64,000 nt of DNA from Pecten maximus (GCF_902652985.1 NC_047018.1:9548001-9612000); one strand, 5' to 3'. Numbered from the stretch's first letter, positions 16,301 to 59,700 are shown. Numbers and translations: made by a program. The notes: generated from the sequence alone by a model not told the origin.

Positions 16301-19300
16301 ATATCAATATCAAGCTGTCTACTTTCTTCTTGCATCTGTTCAATCTTCTCTCTGATCTCCTTTGTTCTACAAACAAAATATTATTGACAGTATGATGATT
16401 ATAGCACATAGCCACATGCTCTACTAAATATGTCATTCTCATTATCACTAGACAACAATGCAGCTGTTAAAACTCTTCACCAACAAACAGGCTAAACTTT
16501 GCCATAGTTCAAGAGCACACAGATACTCTGGTAAATCCATACCAGATACCAAAGATAAGATCACAATCGACCCGACAATGTATTTCTTAGACTGAGGAAT
16601 ATTAATGTATACATACTGTCTCTACACTGACTGAGGAATATTAATGTGTACATACTGTCTCTCTACACTGACTGAGGAATATTAATGTATACATACTGTC
16701 TCTACACTGACTGAGGAATATTAATGTATACATACTGTCTCTACACTGACTGAGGAATATTAATGTATACATACTGTCTCTACACTGACTGAGGAATATT
16801 AATGTATACATACTGTCTCTACACTGACTGAGGAATATTAATGTATACATACTGTCTCTCTACACTGGCTATCTCCTGGTTGTCCTCCTTCACCTGTTTC
16901 AGTAGGCGCTCTCGTTCCTCAGCTGGTGACATTGTTGTCTTTGTCTCCTCTATAAGGCTGTCTCTCTTAGACTCCAACTCATTCAGCTGCTCATAAAGTC
17001 TCACTTGAAACAAAATGATATATATAAACCTTTTGTGACATGTGTAAAACATTAAACCAAAAACAACACACAAAACTATATACTTTTCATTGAAGTTAAA
17101 CTGTTACAGTAAACACCTGTCAAAAACTTCTATTTTAGAACATAGACTGGAATCAATAGATGGTCTCTAAAATCTACAATGAAATACAAACATCAAAAGA
17201 ATATTTCTTTCTAAACAGAAAAAAATTTATCTTGTAAAATTTAAAACTCAAACCATGAGGACAAATTTATACCTACCAGCTTCCTGTTTGACTTGTGATA
17301 AAGACAATTCCTGTAAAACCAAATCAATATCCAGTTATATTACAGCCTAACAACACATAACCTTACATTTATATTACAGCCTAACAAATGTAACCTTACA
17401 TTTATATTACAGCCTAACAACACATAACCTTACATTTATATTACAACCTAACAAACACATAATACCTTACATTTATATTACAACCTAACAAAACATAATA
17501 CCTTACATTTATATTACAGCCTAACAAAACATAACCTTACATTTATATTACAACCTAACAAAACATAACCTTACATTTATATTACAACCTAACAAAACAT
17601 AACCTTACATTTATATTACAGCCTAACAAAACATAATACCTTACATTTATATTACAACCTAACAAAACATAATAACTTACATTTATATTACAACCTAACA
17701 AAACATAACCATTACATTTATAATTATCAAACCTACAAAACATAACTTACATTTAATTACAACCAACAAAACATCAACCGTACTTATATTACCACCGAAC
17801 AAAACATAACCGTTACATTTATATTACACCTAACAAAACATAAATACCTTACATTTATATTACAACCTAAAAAACATATACCTTACATTTATTTACAACC
17901 TAACAAAACATAACCTTACATGTATATTACAACCTAACAAAACATAAACTCTTACATTTATATTACAACCTAACAAAAACATAATACTTACATTTATATT
18001 AGACAACCTAACAAAACAATAATAACTTACATTTATATTACAACCTAACAAAACATATCTTACATTTATATTACAACCTAACAAAACATAACCCGTACAT
18101 TTATATTACAACCTAACAAGACAAATAACCATACCTTACATTTATAGACAGAGCCTAACAAAACAGATACCTGACATTAGATTACAAACGCTAACAAAAA
18201 ATAATATATCTTGACATTTATATTACAGCCTAACAAACACTAATAACTTACATTTATATTAACAACGCTAACAAAACATAATACCTTAACAGTTATATTA
18301 CAAACCTAACAAAACATAATACCTTACATTTATATTACAACCTAACAAAACATAATACCTTACATTTATATTACAACCTAACAAAACATAACCTTACATT
18401 TATATTACAACCTAACAAAACATAACCTTACATTTATATTACAACCTAACAAAACATAATACCTTACATTTATATTACAACCTAACAAAACATAATAACT
18501 TACATTTATATTACAACCTAACAAAACATAACCTTACATTTATATTACAACCTAACAAAACATAATACCTTACATTTATATTACAACCTAACAAAACATA
18601 ATAACTTACATTTATATTACAACCTAACAAAACATAATCTTACATTTATATTACAACCTAACAAAACATAACCTTACATTTATATTACAGCCTAACAAAA
18701 CATAATATCTTACATTTATATTACAACCTAACAAAACATAACCTTACATTTATATTACAACCTAACAAAACATAACCTTACATTTATATTACAACCTAAC
18801 AAAACATAATAACTTACATTTATATTACAACCTAACAAAACATAACTTACATTTATATTACAACCTAACAAAACATAACCTTACATTTATATTACAGCCT
18901 AACAAAACATAATACCTTACATTTATATTACAACCTAACAAAACATAATACCTTACATTTATATTACAACCTAACAAAACATAACCTTACATTTATATTA
19001 CAGCCTAACAAAACATAACTTACATTTATATTACAACCTAACAAAACATAACTTACATTTATATTACAACCTAACAAAACATAACTTACATTTATATTAC
19101 AACCTAACAAAACATAACAACTTACATTTATATTACAGCCTAACAAAACATAACTTACATTTATATTACAACCTAACAAAACATAACCTTACATTTATAT
19201 TACACCTAACAAAACATAATACCTTACATTTATATTACAACCTAACAAAACATAATCCTTACATTATATTACAGCCTAACAAAACATAATACTTACATTT

Positions 19301-22300
19301 ATATTACACCTAACAAAACATATACCTTACATTTATATTACACCTAACAAAACATAATACTTACATTTAATATTACAGCCTAACAAAACATAACCTTACA
19401 TTTATATTACAACCTAACAAAACATAATACCTTACATTTATATTACAACCTAACAAAACATAACCTTACATTTATATTACAGCCTAACAAAACATAACCT
19501 TACATTTATATTACAACCTAACAAAACATAACCTTACATTTATATTACAGCCTAACAAAACATAATACCTTACATTTATATTACAACCTAACAAACATAA
19601 CCTTACATTTATATTACAACCTAACAAAACATAACCTTACATTTATATTACAACCTAACAAAACATAATACCTTACATTTATATTACAACCTAACAAAAC
19701 ATAACCTTACATTTATATTACAGCCTAACAAAACATAATAACTTACATTTATATTACAGCCTAACAAAACATAACTTACATTTATATTACAACCTAACAA
19801 AACATAACCTTACATTTATATTACAGCCTAACAAAACATAATACCTTACATTTATATTACAGCCTAACAAAACATAACCTTACATTTATATTACAACCTA
19901 ACAAAACATAATAACTTACATTTATATTACAACCTAACAAAACATAACCTTACATTTATATTACAGCCTAACAAAACATAACCTTACATTTATATTACAA
20001 CCTAACAAAACATAATACCTTACATTTATATTACAGCCTAACAAAACATAATACCTTACATTTATATTACAACCTAACAAAACATAACCTTACATTTATA
20101 TTACAGCCTAACAAAACATAACCTTACATTTATATTACAACCTAACAAAACATAATACCTTACATTTATATTACAACCTAACAAAACATAACCTTACATT
20201 TATATTACAGCCTAACAAAACATAACTTACATTTATATTACAACCTAAAAACATAACACGATTATATAACAGACCGAACAAAACAATAATACCTTACATG
20301 AATAAACCAAAAAACATAACCTACATTTATATACAACCTAACAAAACATAAGACCTTACATTATATACAGCCTACAAAACATAATCCTTACATTTATTTA
20401 CAACCTAACAAAACATAACCTTACATTTATATTTACAACTCTAACAAACCATAATAGCCTGTACATTTATATTACAACCTAACAAAAACATAAACCTTAC
20501 ATTATATTACAACCTAACCAAAACATACTAACCTACATTTATATTACAAACCCTAACAAAACATAACCTTACATTTAATGTACACCTAAAAAACATAATA
20601 TACCTTACATTATATACAAACCTAACAAAACATAATACCTTACATTTATATTACAGCCCCTAACAAAACATAGCACCTTACATTATATTACAACCTAACA
20701 AAACATAATACCTTACATTTATATTACAACCTAACAAAACATAACAACTTACATTTATATTACAACCTAACAAAACATAACCTTACATTTATAGTACAAC
20801 CTAACAAAACATAACAACTTACATTTATAAGGCACTGGCTCAGTAAATAATGATTTGAAATTCCAAATAAAATTATCATCATATCTAAATGATAAAATTC
20901 TAGTTAAAATTGTTTTCACTCACAGAAACAGAAAGTATAAATGTATTCAATTAAAGCTATAACTTTCTGAATAAAAACAGAACAAAAATTTTGTATTTCA
21001 ATGTAATATTGTTCATAATACTGTTAAGATAAAATGCCATGTAAAAGTGAACCATGTAACAAATATCAGAAACATGATATATAATTTGGAAAATTCTGAC
21101 ACAAACCTCTTGTTGTGTGTCGATTTTGGAGTTGAGAACGTCCAGTTCCTGTTGCCCTTTCTCCAGTTGTCGTAACATATGTTCATTCATGTCCTTCAGC
21201 TTCACATACTTCTCCCTCATCTCGGGGTTCTAGGGAACAAATGTTTGTTATTAATGGCACATTCAGGAAAGAACACATTTTGAAATGAAAACTGAAATCT
21301 GCTTTTGCCTGTTTGGAAATCTGATTACCCTCAAACCATATAGAAATTAACATTAATCTTAGCCGGTCATTTGATCTTTAGCCTACCATATGATCGTTAG
21401 CCTACCATATGATCATTAGCCTACCATATGATCGTCATGCCTACCATATCATTAACAAGATTGTCTGCCATCCTCTTTTCCTGGTCCAATTCCTGCTCAA
21501 GCTGCTGAATAGCCTCCTCCTTACTATTAATAGAATAATAAAATGGTATAAATTAGAATACAGACTCCTGTAGTGTGTGTACACAAAATGTCTTCATTGC
21601 TGTCATTTAAATGTGAAGTAAGAATGATCTTGAATTTCTATCTAAAACAGACATAGGATTATTATCCAAGGGCATATTTCTCATTTGTTTACTCTCCTGT
21701 GTACAATTATATTTATAACAGGTCCCTACACTACTGTATACAGATATCTAACAGGTCCCTACATTACTGTATACAGATATATAACAGGTCCCTACACTAC
21801 TGTATACAGATATATAACAGGTCCCTACCCTGTATACAGATATATAACAGGTCCCTACACTACTGTATACAGATATATAACAGGTCCCTACACTACTGCA
21901 TACAGATAAATAACAGGTCCCTACACTACTGTATACAGATATATAACAGGTCCCTACCCTGTATACAGATATATAACAGGTCCCTACACTACTGTGTACA
22001 GATATATAACAGGTCCCTACACTACTGTGTACAGATATCTAACAGGTCCCTACACTACTGTATTCAGATATATAACAGGTCCCTACACTACTGTATACAG
22101 ATATATAACAGGTCCCTACCCTGTATACAGATATATAACAGGTCCCTACCCTGTATACAGATATATAACAGGTCCCTACATTACTGTATACAGATATCTA
22201 ACAGGTCCCTACACTACTGTATACAGATATATAACAGGTCCCTACATTACTGTATACAGATATTTAACATGTCCCTACACTACTGTATACAGATATATAA

Positions 22301-41700: not shown

Positions 41701-44700
41701 GCTTACTATGCTGAAAAAGTGGGACAGACAAAATAGTTAATTGCCATTAATTCTTGTCTAACTACAGGGTTTTTTTACGGACAGGAATGTATGGATAATC
41801 ATTCTCACTACAATTTGGCCTCTTTGTATAATGTATTTGTTTTCTACTAGTTGTGGCAGTGGTGGCAGACTCAGGGCCGACGTCCATATCCTTCTACTCT
41901 TTATGTGACCCTGAAGGGCATCACACCACCTGATGTCGTGGAACCAGCCATGCGGTCCATGTTCGCCACTCAAAAGGTAACTGATAAAGTAGACTGCCTA
42001 TCCATTCAATGCTGTATTCATCTGTGGTTAATAGTTAACAATAATTGCAAAAAAAAACCACCTGATATTTGTATTATGTGCATACATTCCATACTTTTTG
42101 GAGACCCAACAAGGGAGATCGGTGACTATTTTAAGGGAGTTTTGCCTAAAATTAGGGAGATTTGTGTGTGACATGAATATGAACATTTTTTTCTCAATTT
42201 TAGAGCAAGGAATTCATTTTGAAAGCTTTAAAATAAAGAATATTGATGTTTTTGATGATGTAAATCATAATATTTGAAAAATTGCAATAAGAATACATTC
42301 TAATAATATAAAATTATCATTATTATTATTTTTTAATGTAACACATCACGTCAGGTGGTATGGCATGTATGTATGTGACAGAGGGTTAACTTATCGTTGA
42401 ATTGTGTGACAGATTGTTAAGTGACTGTTACATTGTTTGACAGAGGGTTAACTTATTGTTGAATTGTGTGACATATTGTTAACTGACTGTTATATTATGT
42501 GACGGAGGGTTAACTTATTGTTGAATTGTGTGACAGAGGGTTAACTTATTGTTACATTGTGTGACAGAGGGTTAACTTATTGTTACATTGTGTGACAGAG
42601 GGTTAACTGACTGTTACATTGTGTGACAGAGGGTTAAATGACTGTTATATTATGTGACAGAGGGTTAACTGATTGTTACATTGTGTGACAGAGGGTTAAC
42701 TTATTGTTGAATTGTGTGACGGAGGGTTAACTGACTGTTACATTGTGTGACGGAGGGTTAACTTATTGTTACATTGTGTGACAGGGGGTTAACTTATTGT
42801 TACATTGTGTGACGGAGGGTTAACTGACTGTTAAATTGTGTGACAGAGGGTTAACTTATTGTTACATTGTGTGACGGAGGGTTAACTGACTATTAAATTG
42901 TGTGACAGAGGGTTAACTTATTGTTGAATTGTGTGACGGAGGGTTGACTGACTGCTACATTATGTGACGGAGGGTTAACTTATTGTTGAATTGTGTGACA
43001 GAGGGTTAACTGACTGCTACATTATGTGACAGAGGGTTAACTTATTGTTAAATTGTGTGACAGAGGGTTAACTTATTGTTAAATTGTGTGACAGGGTTAA
43101 CTTATTGTTGAATTGTGTGACAGAGGGTTAACTTATTGTTGAATTGTGTGACAGAGGGTTAACTTATTGTTACATTGTGTGAGAGGGGGTTAACTTATTG
43201 TTACATTGTGTGACGGAGGGTTAACTGACTGTTAAATTGTGTGACAGAGGGTTAACTTATTGTTACATTGTGTGACGGAGGGTTAACTGACTATTAAATT
43301 GTGTGACAGAGGGTTAACTTATTGTTGAATTGTGTGACGGAGGGTTGACTGACTGCTACATTATGTGACGGAGGGTTAACTTATTGTTGAATTGTGTGAC
43401 AGAGGGTTAACTGACTGCTACATTATGTGACAGAGGGTTAACTTATTGTTAAATTGTGTGACAGAGGGTTAACTGACTGTTACATTGTGTGACAGAGGGT
43501 TAACTTATTGTTGAATTGTGTGACAGAGGATTGACTGACTGCTACATTATGTGATGGAGGGTTAACTTATTGTTGAATTGTGTGACAGAGGGTTGACTGA
43601 CTGCTACATTATGTGACGGAGGGTTAACTTATTGTTAAATTGTGTGACAGAGGGTTAACTGTTGTATATTTTTTACTTTGTATAGAAGTGACATAAAACA
43701 TGGCATACTCAAAAATTATTGGCTTTAACTCATGTTCTGCAATCATCTTGTGATGTAGGAAGTGGGAAGCAAGACATACGCAGATCTTAAGAAGAGTACT
43801 AACTGGTCCGATGCTAGGTAAGTCCATGTTTACTTTGTTGTTAGAGACCCGTACAGTGTATATTATATATATATACAGAAATCTATCTTACTGTTATATG
43901 TTCTAGGGGTAGTTATCCAAGAGTTAGTGTTTAACTGTCCATCAGGCAATCTGTCCACACTTTCATTTTCAGAGGTTATTTCAGAATCCAGAGTCTAAAA
44001 TTCCTGAAATTTCACATGATTATACACAATAAGAAGAGTGATTTAATTTAATTTCAATGTCACAGTTATTGTTTTAAAAAACAAATGTGATCAGGATATT
44101 TACTGGGGTATTGGAAAAATATGCACACATACAGCTCTTGCTGACCGGTTATTGTTCTACTCACACAAAAATTTGTCTGATTTTTTTTTTTTTATAATTT
44201 TCAGTGTTATTTTTATGACTTCTGATAGTTACACATGGATTTAGATCTTTTTATTTTGTATTCCATTTTTGTGTGTACCATAAGACAACTGGTTGAGGTA
44301 AAAGCTTGAATTCCATTTTTGTGTGTACCATAAGACAATATGGTCGAGGTAAAAGCTTGAATTCCATTTTTGTGTGTACCATAAGACAATATGGTCGAGG
44401 TAAAAGCTTGAATTCCATTTTTGTGTGTACCATAAGACAATATGGTCAAGGTAAAAGCTTGAATTACAATTTCTCACTATCACTGCACTGTTGATGGTAT
44501 ATGCTGAATGTACTCTGCTTTTTATTTCCTCAGGAGAAAGAGGTAGGTTTTCATCCTACATGTGATTATGACATGTTCCTTTCCCTGCATATATAATCAT
44601 TTCAGACTTTTGTAGTGGAATGTTGCTAGTGCTAGACCTCAGAGAATAGCCATATTATTGATCAGTTTTTCCTGTTGAAGTTAAAAATGATACTGATAGG

Positions 44701-53700: not shown

Positions 53701-56700
53701 ATTGATTTGGAAAGTTGATGAGAAAGTTGATGAGAGCTCTGACTTGTTTCCTGACTATGTAATAGGATTTGGCTTGTTTTCAGTTAAAACAAGAGATTGA
53801 GAACCACAAGGGACATGTTAACTCTATATGTTTTGATGATGACGGTCAGAAACTTTACACAGCTGACAGTGTTGGTGATATCAAAGTCTGGAATGTGTAC
53901 GTGACGGAAAAAGTCAGCCAGAAAGGTTGGTTACTTTTTGTACATTTCAAACTTTGTCATTTTTCATTATGTCTTATTTCATTTTTCTTTATTTCTCATT
54001 TCATTTTTCGTTATGTTTCATGTCATTTTTCTTTATGTCATTTCATTTTTCATCATGTCTTGTTTTTCATTATGATCATATGAATTATTTTTAAAAGATT
54101 ATTCCTCCAAAACCTCTCCATTATATTGTAAGTTCTTGTGTATTCAGATCAATTCTGTTTGATGACATATGACTCCCCTCACTGATATGTATTGTTTGGA
54201 TTTAACAGGTCATTCTGGTAAGCCTCTGACCTCTAAGACTCGATCTTGTGGTCCATGTACTCCAACTTTCTTTGTAGATTAGGAATTAAAATGGAATGCT
54301 ATAGCCTGCAACATCTTATCACCATATATATATCTGGGATAGATTTTCACTACTAACACAGGAAACCTAACATCTTAATGCCACATATTCAATGGTATAC
54401 AAGCTACCAGAATAACTGATATGTACTCCACAGCTTCCTGGTATGTTTGTCTTTGTGTTCAGCGAAAATCGATATGTTAAACGTTGTGACTCTTTTTCTA
54501 TAGTTACTAATGATTAACGGTCTCCTCTTCTACTATATAGACTGACAGTAATTGATTTTTTAACGGATCTGTTTTCTTTTCAGTTGAAGAGAAATCCCAT
54601 TTACAAATCTAAAAATCTCGCATTATATATTTAACAAATTATACCCTACAAAATAGAGGATATAGAATGTTTCCTCTTGAATATCATTATGTTTAACAGA
54701 ATGCATCTAAATGATATTTAACGAGAAACTTTCCATTTTCTTTGATCATAATAAATATATCAAAATACATATATGTCAACACTTTTATAATATATCATTA
54801 TCTTTTTAATGTCAACAACACTGTTGTATGTTTGTAATATTTAAATGTTGACAACACCAAATCATAATGTCAAGAACACTATTGTATGTATGTAATATTC
54901 AAATGTCAACAACACTATAATAATGTCAACACTATATTGTATGTTTGTAATATTCAAATGTCAACAACACTATAATAATGTCAACACTATATTGTATGTT
55001 TGTAATATTCAAATGTCAACAACACCAAATCATAATGTCAACAACACTATATTATAATGTCAACAATACCATATTATAATGTCAACAACACTCTATTATA
55101 ATGTCAACAACACTATATCATAATGTCAACAACACTATATTTTTTAATATATAAATGTTGACAAATTAAACCCCTTTATGTGTCTGTTTCTTATGTCTGT
55201 TCTATATTATTTATTCAAAAGGACAAGTTAATGATGTCATAATCGCATGTCGTCATACTGTAATAAAAACGTGACGTCATAATATACATTATGTTCTCAA
55301 AACTGGCATATACACTCTGTATACCTGACCTGGAGGTGTTACTGTACTGCTTCTGTTTCAGGATTCCTGCGAGACTGGACACATTTCCAGGACCTTTCAG
55401 ATCCTGAAATGAAGGTAGATATGAAAATAAGTTAATCTCTGATATATCATAGCTATTCGTGTCCAGTACTTTTTTGGAAATAAATTTATCTCCGATATAC
55501 CATAGCTATACCGGTATATTTTTTTTATAAATGTAAAGAAAAGTGTGAATGATATATACTGAATTAGTTTAAGCCAATGCTTGTTATACACAGTAACACT
55601 ATTCACAATAGAATGTTTAACTACATGACAACTGACATCCTCTCCATTCCCTGAGATGTATAGCCCCCTGATTGATAAATATCACCAAATATAAAGGGTA
55701 CATTTCTTGGATGTCCCAATTTCATACTTTGGGTTAAATTTCACTGAACATACTGGGCCTTACTTCCCCCCGTATATCCCAGTATTAATCTACGATTTGT
55801 GTTACAGGATGTTCCCATCATACAGGCCTTTATCTCCCCCCATATATCCCAGTATTAATCTACGATTTGTGTTACAGGATGTTCCCATCATACAGGCCTT
55901 TATCTCCCCCCGTATATCCCAGTATTAATCTACGATTTGTGTTACAGGATGTTCCCATCATACAGGCCTTTTACCTCCCCCGTATATCCCAGTATTAATC
56001 TACGATTTGTGTTACAGGATGTTCCCATCATACAGGCCTTTTACCTCCCCCGTATATCCCAGTATTAATCTACGATTTGTGTTACAGGATGTTCCCATCA
56101 TACAGGCCTTTACTTCCCCCGTATATCCCAGTATTAATCTACGATTTGTGTTACAGGATGTTCCCATCATACAGGCCTTTTACCTCCCCCGTATATCCCA
56201 GTATTAATCTACGATTTGTGTTACAGGATGTTCCCATCATACAGGCCTTTTACCTCCCCCGTATATCCCAGTATTAATCTACGATTTGTGTTACAGGATG
56301 TTCCCATCATACAGGTCTTTACCTCCCCCCCGTATATCCCAGTATTAATCTACGATTTGTGTTACAGGATGTTCCCATCATACAGGCCTTTTACCTCCCC
56401 CGTATATCCCAGTATTAATCTACGATTTGTGTTACAGGATGTTCCCATCATACAGGTCTTTACCTCCCCCCGTATATCCCAGTATTAATCTACGATTTGT
56501 GTTACAGGATGTTCCCATCATACAGGCCTTTACCTCCCCCCGTATATCCCAGTATTAATCTACGATTTGTGTTACAGGATGTTCCCATCATACAGGCCTT
56601 TTACCTCCCCCGTATATCCCAGTATTAATCTACGATTTGTGTTACAGGATGTTCCCATCATACAGGTCTTTACCCCCCCCCCGTATATCCCAGTATTAAT

Positions 56701-59700
56701 CTACGATTTGTGTTACAGGATGTTCCCATCATACAGGTCTTTACCTCCCCCCCGTATATCCCAGTATTAATCTACGATTTGTGTTACAGGATGTTCCCAT
56801 CATACAGGCCTTTTACCTCCCCCGTATATCCCAGTATTAATCTACGATTTGTGTTACAGGATGTTCCCATCATACAGGCCTTTACTTCCCCCGTATATCC
56901 CAGTATTAATCTACGATTTGTGTTACAGGATGTTCCCATCATACAGGTCTTTACCTCCCCCCCGTATATCCCAGTATTAATCTACGATTTGTGTTACAGG
57001 ATGTTCCCATCATACAGGCCTTTTACCTCCCCCGTATATCCCAGTATTAATCTACGATTTGTGTTACAGGATGTTCCCATCATACAGGCCTTTTACCTCC
57101 CCCGTATATCCCAGTATTAATCTACGATTTGTGTTACAGGATGTTCCCATCATACAGGTCTTTACCTCCCCCCGTATATCCCAGTATTAATCTACGATTT
57201 GTGTTACAGGATGTTCCCATCATACAGGTCTTTACCTCCCCCCGTATATCCCAGTATTAATCTACGATTTGTGTTACAGGATGTTCCCATCATACAGGTC
57301 TTTACCTCCCCCCGTATATCCCAGTATTAATCTACGATTTGTGTTACAGGATGTTCCCATCATACAGGTCTTTACCTCCCCCCGTATATCCCAGTATTAA
57401 TCTACGATTTGTGTTACAGGATGTTCCCATCATACAGGCCTTTACCTCCCCCCGTATATCCCAGTATTAATCTACGATTTGTGTTACAGGATGTTCCCAT
57501 CATACAGGTCTTTACCTCCCCCGTATATCCCAGTATTAATCTACGATTTGTGTTACAGGATGTTCCCATCATACAGGCCTTTACTTCCCCCGTATATCCC
57601 AGTATTAATCTACGATTTGTGTTACAGGATGTTCCCATCATACAGGCCTTTACTTCCCCCGTATATCCCAGTATTAATCTACGATTTGTGTTACAGGATG
57701 TTCCCATCATACAGGCCTTTACCTCCCCCGTATATCCCAGTATTAATCTACGATTTGTGTTACAGGATGTTCCCATCATACAGGCCTTTACTTCCCCCGT
57801 ATATCCCAGTATTAATCTACGATTTGTGTTACAGGATGTTCCCATCATACAGGCCTTTACTTCCCCCGTATATCCCAGTATTAATCTACGATTTGTGTTA
57901 CAGGATGTTCCCATCATACAGGCCTTTACTTCCCCCGTATATCCCAGTATTAATCTACGATTTGTGTTACAGGATGTTCCCATCATACAGGTCTTTACCT
58001 CCCCCCGTATATCCCAGTATTAATCTACGATTTGTGTTACAGGATGTTCCCATCATACAGGCCTTTACTTCCCCCTGTATATCCCAGTATTAATCTACGA
58101 TTTGTGTTACAGGATGTTCCCATCATACAGGCCTTTACCTCCCCCGTATATCCCAGTATTAATCTACGATTTGTGTTACAGGATGTTCCCATCATACAGG
58201 CCTTTACCTCCCCCGTATATCCCAGTATTAATCTACGATTTGTGTTACAGGATGTTCCCATCATACAGGCCTTTACTCCCCCGTATATCCCAGTATTAAT
58301 CTACGATTTGTGTTACAGGATGTTCCCATCATACAGGTCTTTACCTCCCCCCGTATATCCCAGTATTAATCTACGATTTGTGTTACAGGATGTTCCCATC
58401 ATACAGGCCTTTACTTCCCCCGTATATCCCAGTATTAATCTACGATTTGTGTTACAGGATGTTCCCATCATACAGGCCTTTTACCTCCCCCCGTATATCC
58501 CAGTATTAATCTACGATTTGTGTTACAGGATGTTCCCATCAACTATATCCAGCTCCACCACAGTGGGCGTCGCCTCCTGGTACATTGTCGCGACAACATC
58601 ATCAGGATGATTGACCTACGCATGTATGTATCTTGTTTGTTGTATTTGATAATGAGATACAGATATCACTACAGAATGTCAAACATATTGATATTTTAGC
58701 CCATCATCAGATGGTGGGCTATTCAAATTGACCTGCGTCTGTCGTCTGTCTTCTGCCACCCTATTCCATCTGTTGTTAGTCTGTCAATAAACAATCCTTG
58801 TTACCTCTATTTCTTAAAAAGTACCAAAGGGATTTTTCTCAAACTTCACATGTAGGTTCTACTTGTCCTTTGAAATCAGTTTATTAAGAAAGAAGAAAGA
58901 AGGGAAAAGTAGAGAGAAGATCAGTCTTTCAGAATCAATAAAGATAATTCAATGGTTGGCATCACGTTCACACTGGGAAGTCTTGTACTTTTTTTATTAC
59001 TGTTCTTTGCCAGGGGGGTGTTTTATACCGTGTGTACATATATTTTGATTATTGTGTTGTTACTATTTTGATGATATATTTTGTTTTCACTATCTATTAA
59101 TTTATTGTGACCCGTCATTGTGATGTTGATGACCTGTTTATTTCAAAGACAACGGGTGATGCAGAAGTACATTGGAGCATTGAACTTTCGGGAACAGATT
59201 CGGAGTACTATCACACCGTGTGGATCCTTTGTGTTCTCTGGAAGTGAAGATAACTACGCATATGCTTGGAACACAGACACTGGTTAGTCAGCCATTATCA
59301 ACATGCTGCTAACACATTAACTTACAGTTTTCTTGATAGAACTCATCTTTAAGTAACAAATGATGTAAATCATACCTTTATGTACATCTTCAAAGAAAAA
59401 ACAAACCAATTTAATTATTAAGATTATATAAAGTTTATTCCATTCTATCATTATTTGCTTCCTTTCTCAAACCGATTTCCATAATTTGTGATTCATAATT
59501 TGAATCTTACTTATCATACTGACTTGTGATGTAGCTGCCCAGCCCTCAGAGTAATTAGAGTATTACTTTGTGTTACAGGGGACCAAGTGGCTATGTACTC
59601 TGAGCTGAACTACCGTCACCCTGTGACAGACATCGACTACCATCCCCGTGACCACATGTTCGCCACGTGTTCTCTAGGGGACAACCAGGCCATTATAGTA

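Follow-up and report, generated by a model that had tools for sequence, protein, structure and literature searches.

Forty tandem copies of an AHI1 acceptor in the scallop Pecten maximus form a mirage minisatellite, and similar arrays occur at about 3% of sampled splice sites

The window analysed here, a 64,000-nt stretch of Pecten maximus DNA, contains two cilia genes arranged head to head, AHI1 (32739-64000, plus strand) and, upstream of it, IFT74 (7349-29444, minus strand), whose coding starts lie about 3.3 kb apart and which may share a promoter. Tandem arrays occupy 25.5 of the 56.7 kb spanned by the two genes. Further coding stretches at 169-993 on the minus strand presumably belong to a METTL4-type methyltransferase.

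The identity of the plus-strand gene, assigned to AHI1 in an earlier sequence-only reading, was confirmed: it matches P. maximus jouberin letter for letter, its protein (P0001) is orthologous to named jouberins and carries WD40 and SH3 domains, and jouberin isoform X3 maps exactly as 29 exons over 32739-63518, with 55414 spliced to 58529. The exon 58529-58623 and its donor at 58624 fall exactly on this isoform, the exon at 59149 shows 100% identity with P. maximus jouberin, and all 32 hits of a protein search with the latter exon passed, the named ones being mostly jouberin/AHI1. No insertion at the 55414/58529 junction was found in the three P. maximus isoform models or in the six other scallop proteins examined; as their annotation was probably made on the same assembly, the isoform models are not independent evidence. 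Isoforms X1-X3 are accounted for by 9-nt alternative microexons at 44534-44542 and 54209-54217, and the second microexon insertion is also present in Mizuhopecten and Ylistrum proteins. The features around the array, all on the plus strand, are as follows (a slash marks a splice junction).

55362-55414, plus strand: upstream AHI1 exon of 53 nt with the donor GTAGAT at 55415 (isoform mapping; RNA-type contigs of runs X6, X8 and X14)
55415-55807, plus strand: unique 5' segment of the intron, 393 nt, preceding the first acceptor copy (inferred from collapsing the array)
55749-58541, plus strand: minisatellite of the 'mirage' type, 40 x 68-71 bp (repeat finder and sequence)
55808-58458, plus strand: 39 decoy acceptors (sequence)
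56297-58336, plus strand: 12 units with CAG/GTCTTT, possibly an 18-nt pseudo-exon in frame (DVPIIQ) whose donor is very weak (sequence and scores)
58506-58528, plus strand: functional 3' splice site, pyrimidine/G-T tract and CAG (sequence; acceptor score)
58529-58623, plus strand: true AHI1 exon of 95 nt, in the WD40 propeller region (residues 838-869 of P0001), with the donor GTATGT at 58624 (isoform mapping, domains, contigs)
59149-59282, plus strand: next AHI1 exon (isoform mapping; spliced contigs of runs X6 and X9)

Tandem Repeats Finder delimits the array with a period of 70, 40.0 copies and 96% matches. Each unit consists of the terminal 57 nt of the AHI1 intron followed by the opening 13 nt of the exon, and therefore spans the exon-intron boundary of the host gene. 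The acceptor tgtgttacag/GATGTTCCCATCA occurs 40 times, first at 55808 and last at 58529, as the sequence-only reading had proposed when it described about 40 tandem copies of this 3' splice site. The 13 exon nucleotides and the acceptor signal tgtgttacag/G are invariant in 40/40 copies, and the 36 nt 5' of the junction are the same in 39 of them. A TTAAT about 20 nt 5' of the functional acceptor is presumably a branch-point-like element, and every unit has a second, weaker AG (CATACAG/G). The 39 full units do vary in length, although over 68-71 nt instead of the 69-71 nt given earlier (21 units of 70 nt, 12 of 69, five of 71 and one of 68); they fall into 13 variants, with differences almost confined to the T and C runs. 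From position +19 onward, 27 units read GCCTTT and 12 read GTCTTT.

An assembly artefact, or the insertion of a satellite or transposon, could also account for such an array, and tandem arrays do carry a general risk of misassembly, the copy number of 40 being known from the assembly only. However, the 13 unit variants are arranged in a non-random order, and contigs of the unit were found in two DNA-type runs from other samples (X2 and X5), one of which, X5, includes a unit-to-unit junction. A search of the 918-Mb genome (G000) with the last unit and exon, which passes over very common words, returned 40 matches, all at the AHI1 locus, and the unit derives from the gene's own border. This explanation is largely refuted, and we give it next to no chance. 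Run X5 and the window disagree at many unique sites, and the main unit variant is not the same in X2 and X5, as read from contigs that give no copy number. The array is real and variable in its make-up. A different element, a high-copy dispersed repeat at 58670-58960 in the next AHI1 intron, has hundreds of matching contigs in every run.

The acceptor used by the RNA was read from splice joins in Logan contigs of six of the 24 listed runs, whose RNA status was guessed; the other 18, with small shares and organism B among them, were left out of the comparison. A join from 55414 would continue with CATCAAC at the true copy and with CATCATAC at any decoy. The exon 55362-55414 is joined to ...CATCAACTATATCC, i.e., to the exon at 58529, in one contig each of X6, X8 and X14, representing three of the four RNA-type runs and three studies, and the X6 contig stays spliced onward through 59149 and 59579; the fourth run, X9, has no contig on exon 58529-58623. 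Thus the authentic, exon-adjacent copy is used in the main mRNA. No decoy join was present among the contigs of the four RNA-type runs; since contigs lose rare forms, they display the main splice form only, and some leakage to decoys is possible. The earlier statement that only the last copy opens the exon was borne out, as 58529 alone runs on into coding sequence and both the contigs and isoform X3 join there.

Contigs built of array units (55762-55862) are also found in the RNA-type runs X6, X8 and X9, and may represent pre-mRNA, DNA or mis-spliced RNA. The depth of the core-unit contigs is 32, 378 and 2.3 in X6, X8 and X9, compared with 25.6 and 106.6 for exon contigs in X6 and X8. We gave this apparent excess no weight because contig depth cannot rank the parts of a gene and 40 collapsed copies of low-level pre-mRNA or DNA would suffice to produce it, less easily so in X8. 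The unique intron segment 55420-55761 has no contig in this comparison, a hole that proves nothing, and an estimate of copy number from contig depth was rejected, as contig depth is not copy number.

Splice sites were scored with matrices derived from 50 acceptors and 50 donors found in the window. By this measure the repeated acceptor outscores 36 of the 50 real acceptors, and the true donor at 58624 has a mid-range score. Reading from a decoy acceptor on to this donor leads to a stop in 39/39 cases, and the same applies to the second AG of each unit when used as an acceptor (39/39). The sequence-only reading had expected in-frame insertions or stops from the upstream acceptors; stops are what we found, and in-frame insertions do not arise by use of alternative acceptors. 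The last three decoys would make exons of 166, 235 and 305 nt, within the size range of AHI1 exons, so the choice of the last copy is not accounted for by exon size alone. This copy is likely chosen because it is nearest to the downstream donor and is alone continued by real exon sequence. Based on established splicing knowledge and on precedents, cross-exon pairing with the donor at 58624 would likely select it through proximity and exon sequence beyond +13, and a rare decoy product with a premature stop would be expected to undergo nonsense-mediated decay.

The 12 units with GTCTTT raise another interpretation, in which the GT at +19 ends a new in-frame microexon encoding DVPIIQ or provides a recursive-splicing point for stepwise removal of the intron. 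The variant, described earlier as present in some units, exists in 12 of 39, its 18 nt would preserve the frame, AHI1 already has two 9-nt microexons, and a study of amphioxus mirages proposes a model leading from mirage to new intron (PMC3087553). The pseudo-exon itself, however, is missing from all three annotated isoforms and from the contigs examined, and an insertion would land within the WD40 region. Its donor CAG/GTCTTT scores 2.06, lower than 96% of the 50 real donors of the window, and the AG preceding it scores 3.2-4.5. With an acceptor at 4.48, a donor at 2.06 and no such junction in the contigs, the units do not resemble recursive splice sites or microexons, and this interpretation appears highly unlikely.

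We also considered silencing of the decoys by RNA structure, through pairing of the downstream ATACAGG with the decoy's own pyrimidine tract. Some decoys do take this hairpin as their minimum-energy fold at 37 C, and the mean unpaired probability of the tract is 0.37-0.39 in decoys versus 0.41-0.59 in the true copy. But the folds have weak energies (-5 to -10 kcal/mol per 80 nt) and shift with the window and temperature chosen, and the median unpaired probability over 28 real AHI1 acceptors is 0.40, equal to that of the decoys. In view of this lack of a clear difference from real acceptors, masking of the decoys was rejected, and we regard it as extremely improbable.

The sequence also suggests how the array arose. 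The unit boundary joins exon position +13 to a point 57 nt 5' of the junction, and the dinucleotide CA is common to both ends. A duplication of about 70 bp with 2-nt CA microhomology at its ends may thus have copied the branch point, tract, AG and 13 exon nucleotides in an intron that, judging from the collapsed array, would have been 393 nt long before expansion. Slippage or unequal exchange would then have expanded the array and homogenised neighbouring units. Identical units are adjacent 10 times versus 4.7 expected (P=0.01), which is the pattern that such stepwise events would give. Somatic instability is reportedly known from the Adh3 mirage of amphioxus. Length variation between haplotypes is a further feature of mirages.

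Arrays of this kind are found elsewhere in the window and in the genome. In AHI1 and IFT74 together we counted 25 arrays, and three of 106 splice sites are multiplied, namely the AHI1 acceptor and two IFT74 donors, and the number of arrays straddling exon edges (three) compares with 3.9 expected from random placement. The first IFT74 array, a 39-bp repeat in 6.9 copies at 16590-16859 (minus strand), contains the donor at 16853 seven times; the second, a 19-20-bp repeat at 21368-21449 (minus strand), contains the donor at 21445 four times.

For a wider estimate we examined 10-kb stretches, 80 of them around kinase matches (136 were listed) and 80 around Ras matches (the list gave 150 of 151), picked by coordinates before the DNA was viewed, with most single-exon hits and unplaced contigs skipped. 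Tandem arrays cover 19% of the kinase stretches and 20% of the Ras stretches. In the kinase sample, 18 of 394 exon edges overlap an array, of which four with a single copy of the site were dropped, leaving 14 (five acceptors and nine donors); in the Ras sample, where some stretches are tandem paralogues, there are eight of 348 (three acceptors and five donors), including one weak case (L217). Pooled with the window, 25 of 848 splice sites carry tandem copies (2.9%, CI 1.9-4.3), a rate that some false edges would lower, as the edges were inferred from profile hits and matrices and not from RNA. Acceptors alone give 9 of 443 in the pooled set, and leaving out the window and the two weakest cases gives 20 of 742 splice sites (2.7%). 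Compared with random birth of arrays within each stretch, the kinase sample has 17 straddling arrays versus 7.7 expected (P=0.002), the Ras sample six versus 5.3 (P=0.44), and the pooled set including the window 26 versus 16.9 (P=0.024). There is no sign that arrays are purged from exon edges; an excess there is possible, although the kinase signal was not replicated in the Ras genes or the window.

Across the sampled arrays the exon portion per unit ranges from 1 to 38 nt and the copy number reaches 110. The AHI1 array is not the largest acceptor array of the sample. It is exceeded at locus L168 (4231-7769, plus strand), where a 41-bp array repeats an acceptor plus a following GT about 77 times, 5' of a Ras-family exon (Pfam Ras) that we take to be Rab11-like from its sequence; its AG/GT unit is a candidate for recursive splicing. 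A Ras-family gene at L200 (minus strand) has about 110 donor copies in 45-bp units over 5 kb, and a kinase gene at L102 (minus strand) has at least 60 donor copies in 44-bp units over 3.7 kb. The latter also contains an acceptor array with units of 59 bp; the 36-nt in-frame stretch within these units precedes a GTATGT and makes a putative pseudo-exon, which appears to be a stronger candidate than that of AHI1. At L064 (minus strand), a single kinase exon is flanked by mirages on either side, with 14 acceptor and 14 donor copies.

These data make it very probable that mirages are a genome-wide class in this scallop, affecting about 3% of splice sites, which would mean loci numbering on the order of ten thousand, provided that the sample represents the genome. 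The frequency of such events here is due to the tandem repeats that make up about one-fifth of the gene regions sampled; in other scallops a high tandem-repeat content, 11.3% and 21.7%, is given in two reports (PMC5700196, PMC10225492). We found no genome-wide mirage count in print, in a literature search that most subscription papers lie outside.

We therefore return to the possibility that the AHI1 array is a leaky, copy-number-dependent regulator, whose decoys divert splicing or U2/U2AF, with degradation of the products, so that array length tunes AHI1 output. Every decoy is a complete acceptor of the high score given above, array-unit contigs occur in three of four RNA-type runs, and the difference in main unit variant between X2 and X5 shows that alleles vary; human tandem repeats that change splicing also exist, PMC10078293 defining splicing-regulatory tandem repeats (spl-TRs) by a length associated with splicing change across individuals. 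However, none of the contigs examined has a decoy junction, the presence of comparable arrays at about 3% of sites in unrelated genes, a rate close to chance, speaks against a role particular to AHI1, and aberrant mRNA is reported absent for published mirages (PMC3087553, PMC3902484). The tuning of AHI1 by sequestration of U2/U2AF, put forward in the sequence-only reading, found no support in this analysis, and we consider this regulatory role quite unlikely. Instead, we propose that the array is probably a locally born minisatellite across the AHI1 intron-exon border, of whose 40 acceptors only the last is joined in the assembled transcripts, and a tolerated by-product with no regulatory job. 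Removal of decoy products by decay would leave only weak selection against it. The broader statement that mirages form a genome-wide class of up to 110 copies and that at some loci, including AHI1, copy number sends a measurable share of transcripts to decay is likewise unlikely.

If both the class and the diversion were true, scallops would harbour a great number of hidden splicing variants polymorphic in length, and with them a natural library on how one among many identical splice sites is picked. If about 3% of splice sites in a repeat-rich animal genome can multiply tens-fold without visible loss, the choice of splice site would depend strongly on position and exon context, and thousands of natural competition assays with varied unit length, exon portion and copy number would be available in one species. 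For annotators, such arrays mimic exon starts.

Several known systems resemble the AHI1 array. In the human CBS 844ins68 allele, 68 bp of an intron-exon junction are duplicated, the distal site wins and splicing is normal; unlike the AHI1 array, it consists of two copies in a single insertion allele and is not expanding (PMC2630376). The human F7 intron 7 (IVS7) contains a 37-bp VNTR whose unit spans the splice junction and in which, as in AHI1, the exon-adjacent copy alone is used, out of five to nine identical sites; the pseudo-sites are functional yet silent. In contrast to AHI1, this VNTR sits on the donor side, and its mechanism was tested by minigenes (PMC1557585). The closest counterparts are the mirages of amphioxus (globins BflGb6 and BflGb9, Adh3, troponin C and PGBD5), described in PMC3087553 and PMC3902484 as tandem duplications, minisatellite-like, of intron-exon borders, in which splice signals are kept in the units, regular splicing persists and neighbours homogenise. 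The AHI1 array is a mirage, as it shares the four features of this class that could be tested, i.e., a unit across the boundary, preserved splice signals, use of the authentic copy in the main mRNA and local homogenisation, and like BflGb6 it multiplies the 3' end of the intron together with the start of the exon (PMC3087553). It differs in its host, a mollusc and not a cephalochordate, in having 40 copies versus 3-6 in BflGb6, and in a 70-bp unit with only 13 exon nucleotides; frequency was in addition measured here over a genome sample. To describe the locus as a natural test of exon definition is reasonable, but in the light of the published mirages, CBS 844ins68, F7 IVS7 and the roughly 3% of sampled sites it is not a special one: the locus is ordinary, one more mirage, and it is their genome-wide frequency that is worth following.
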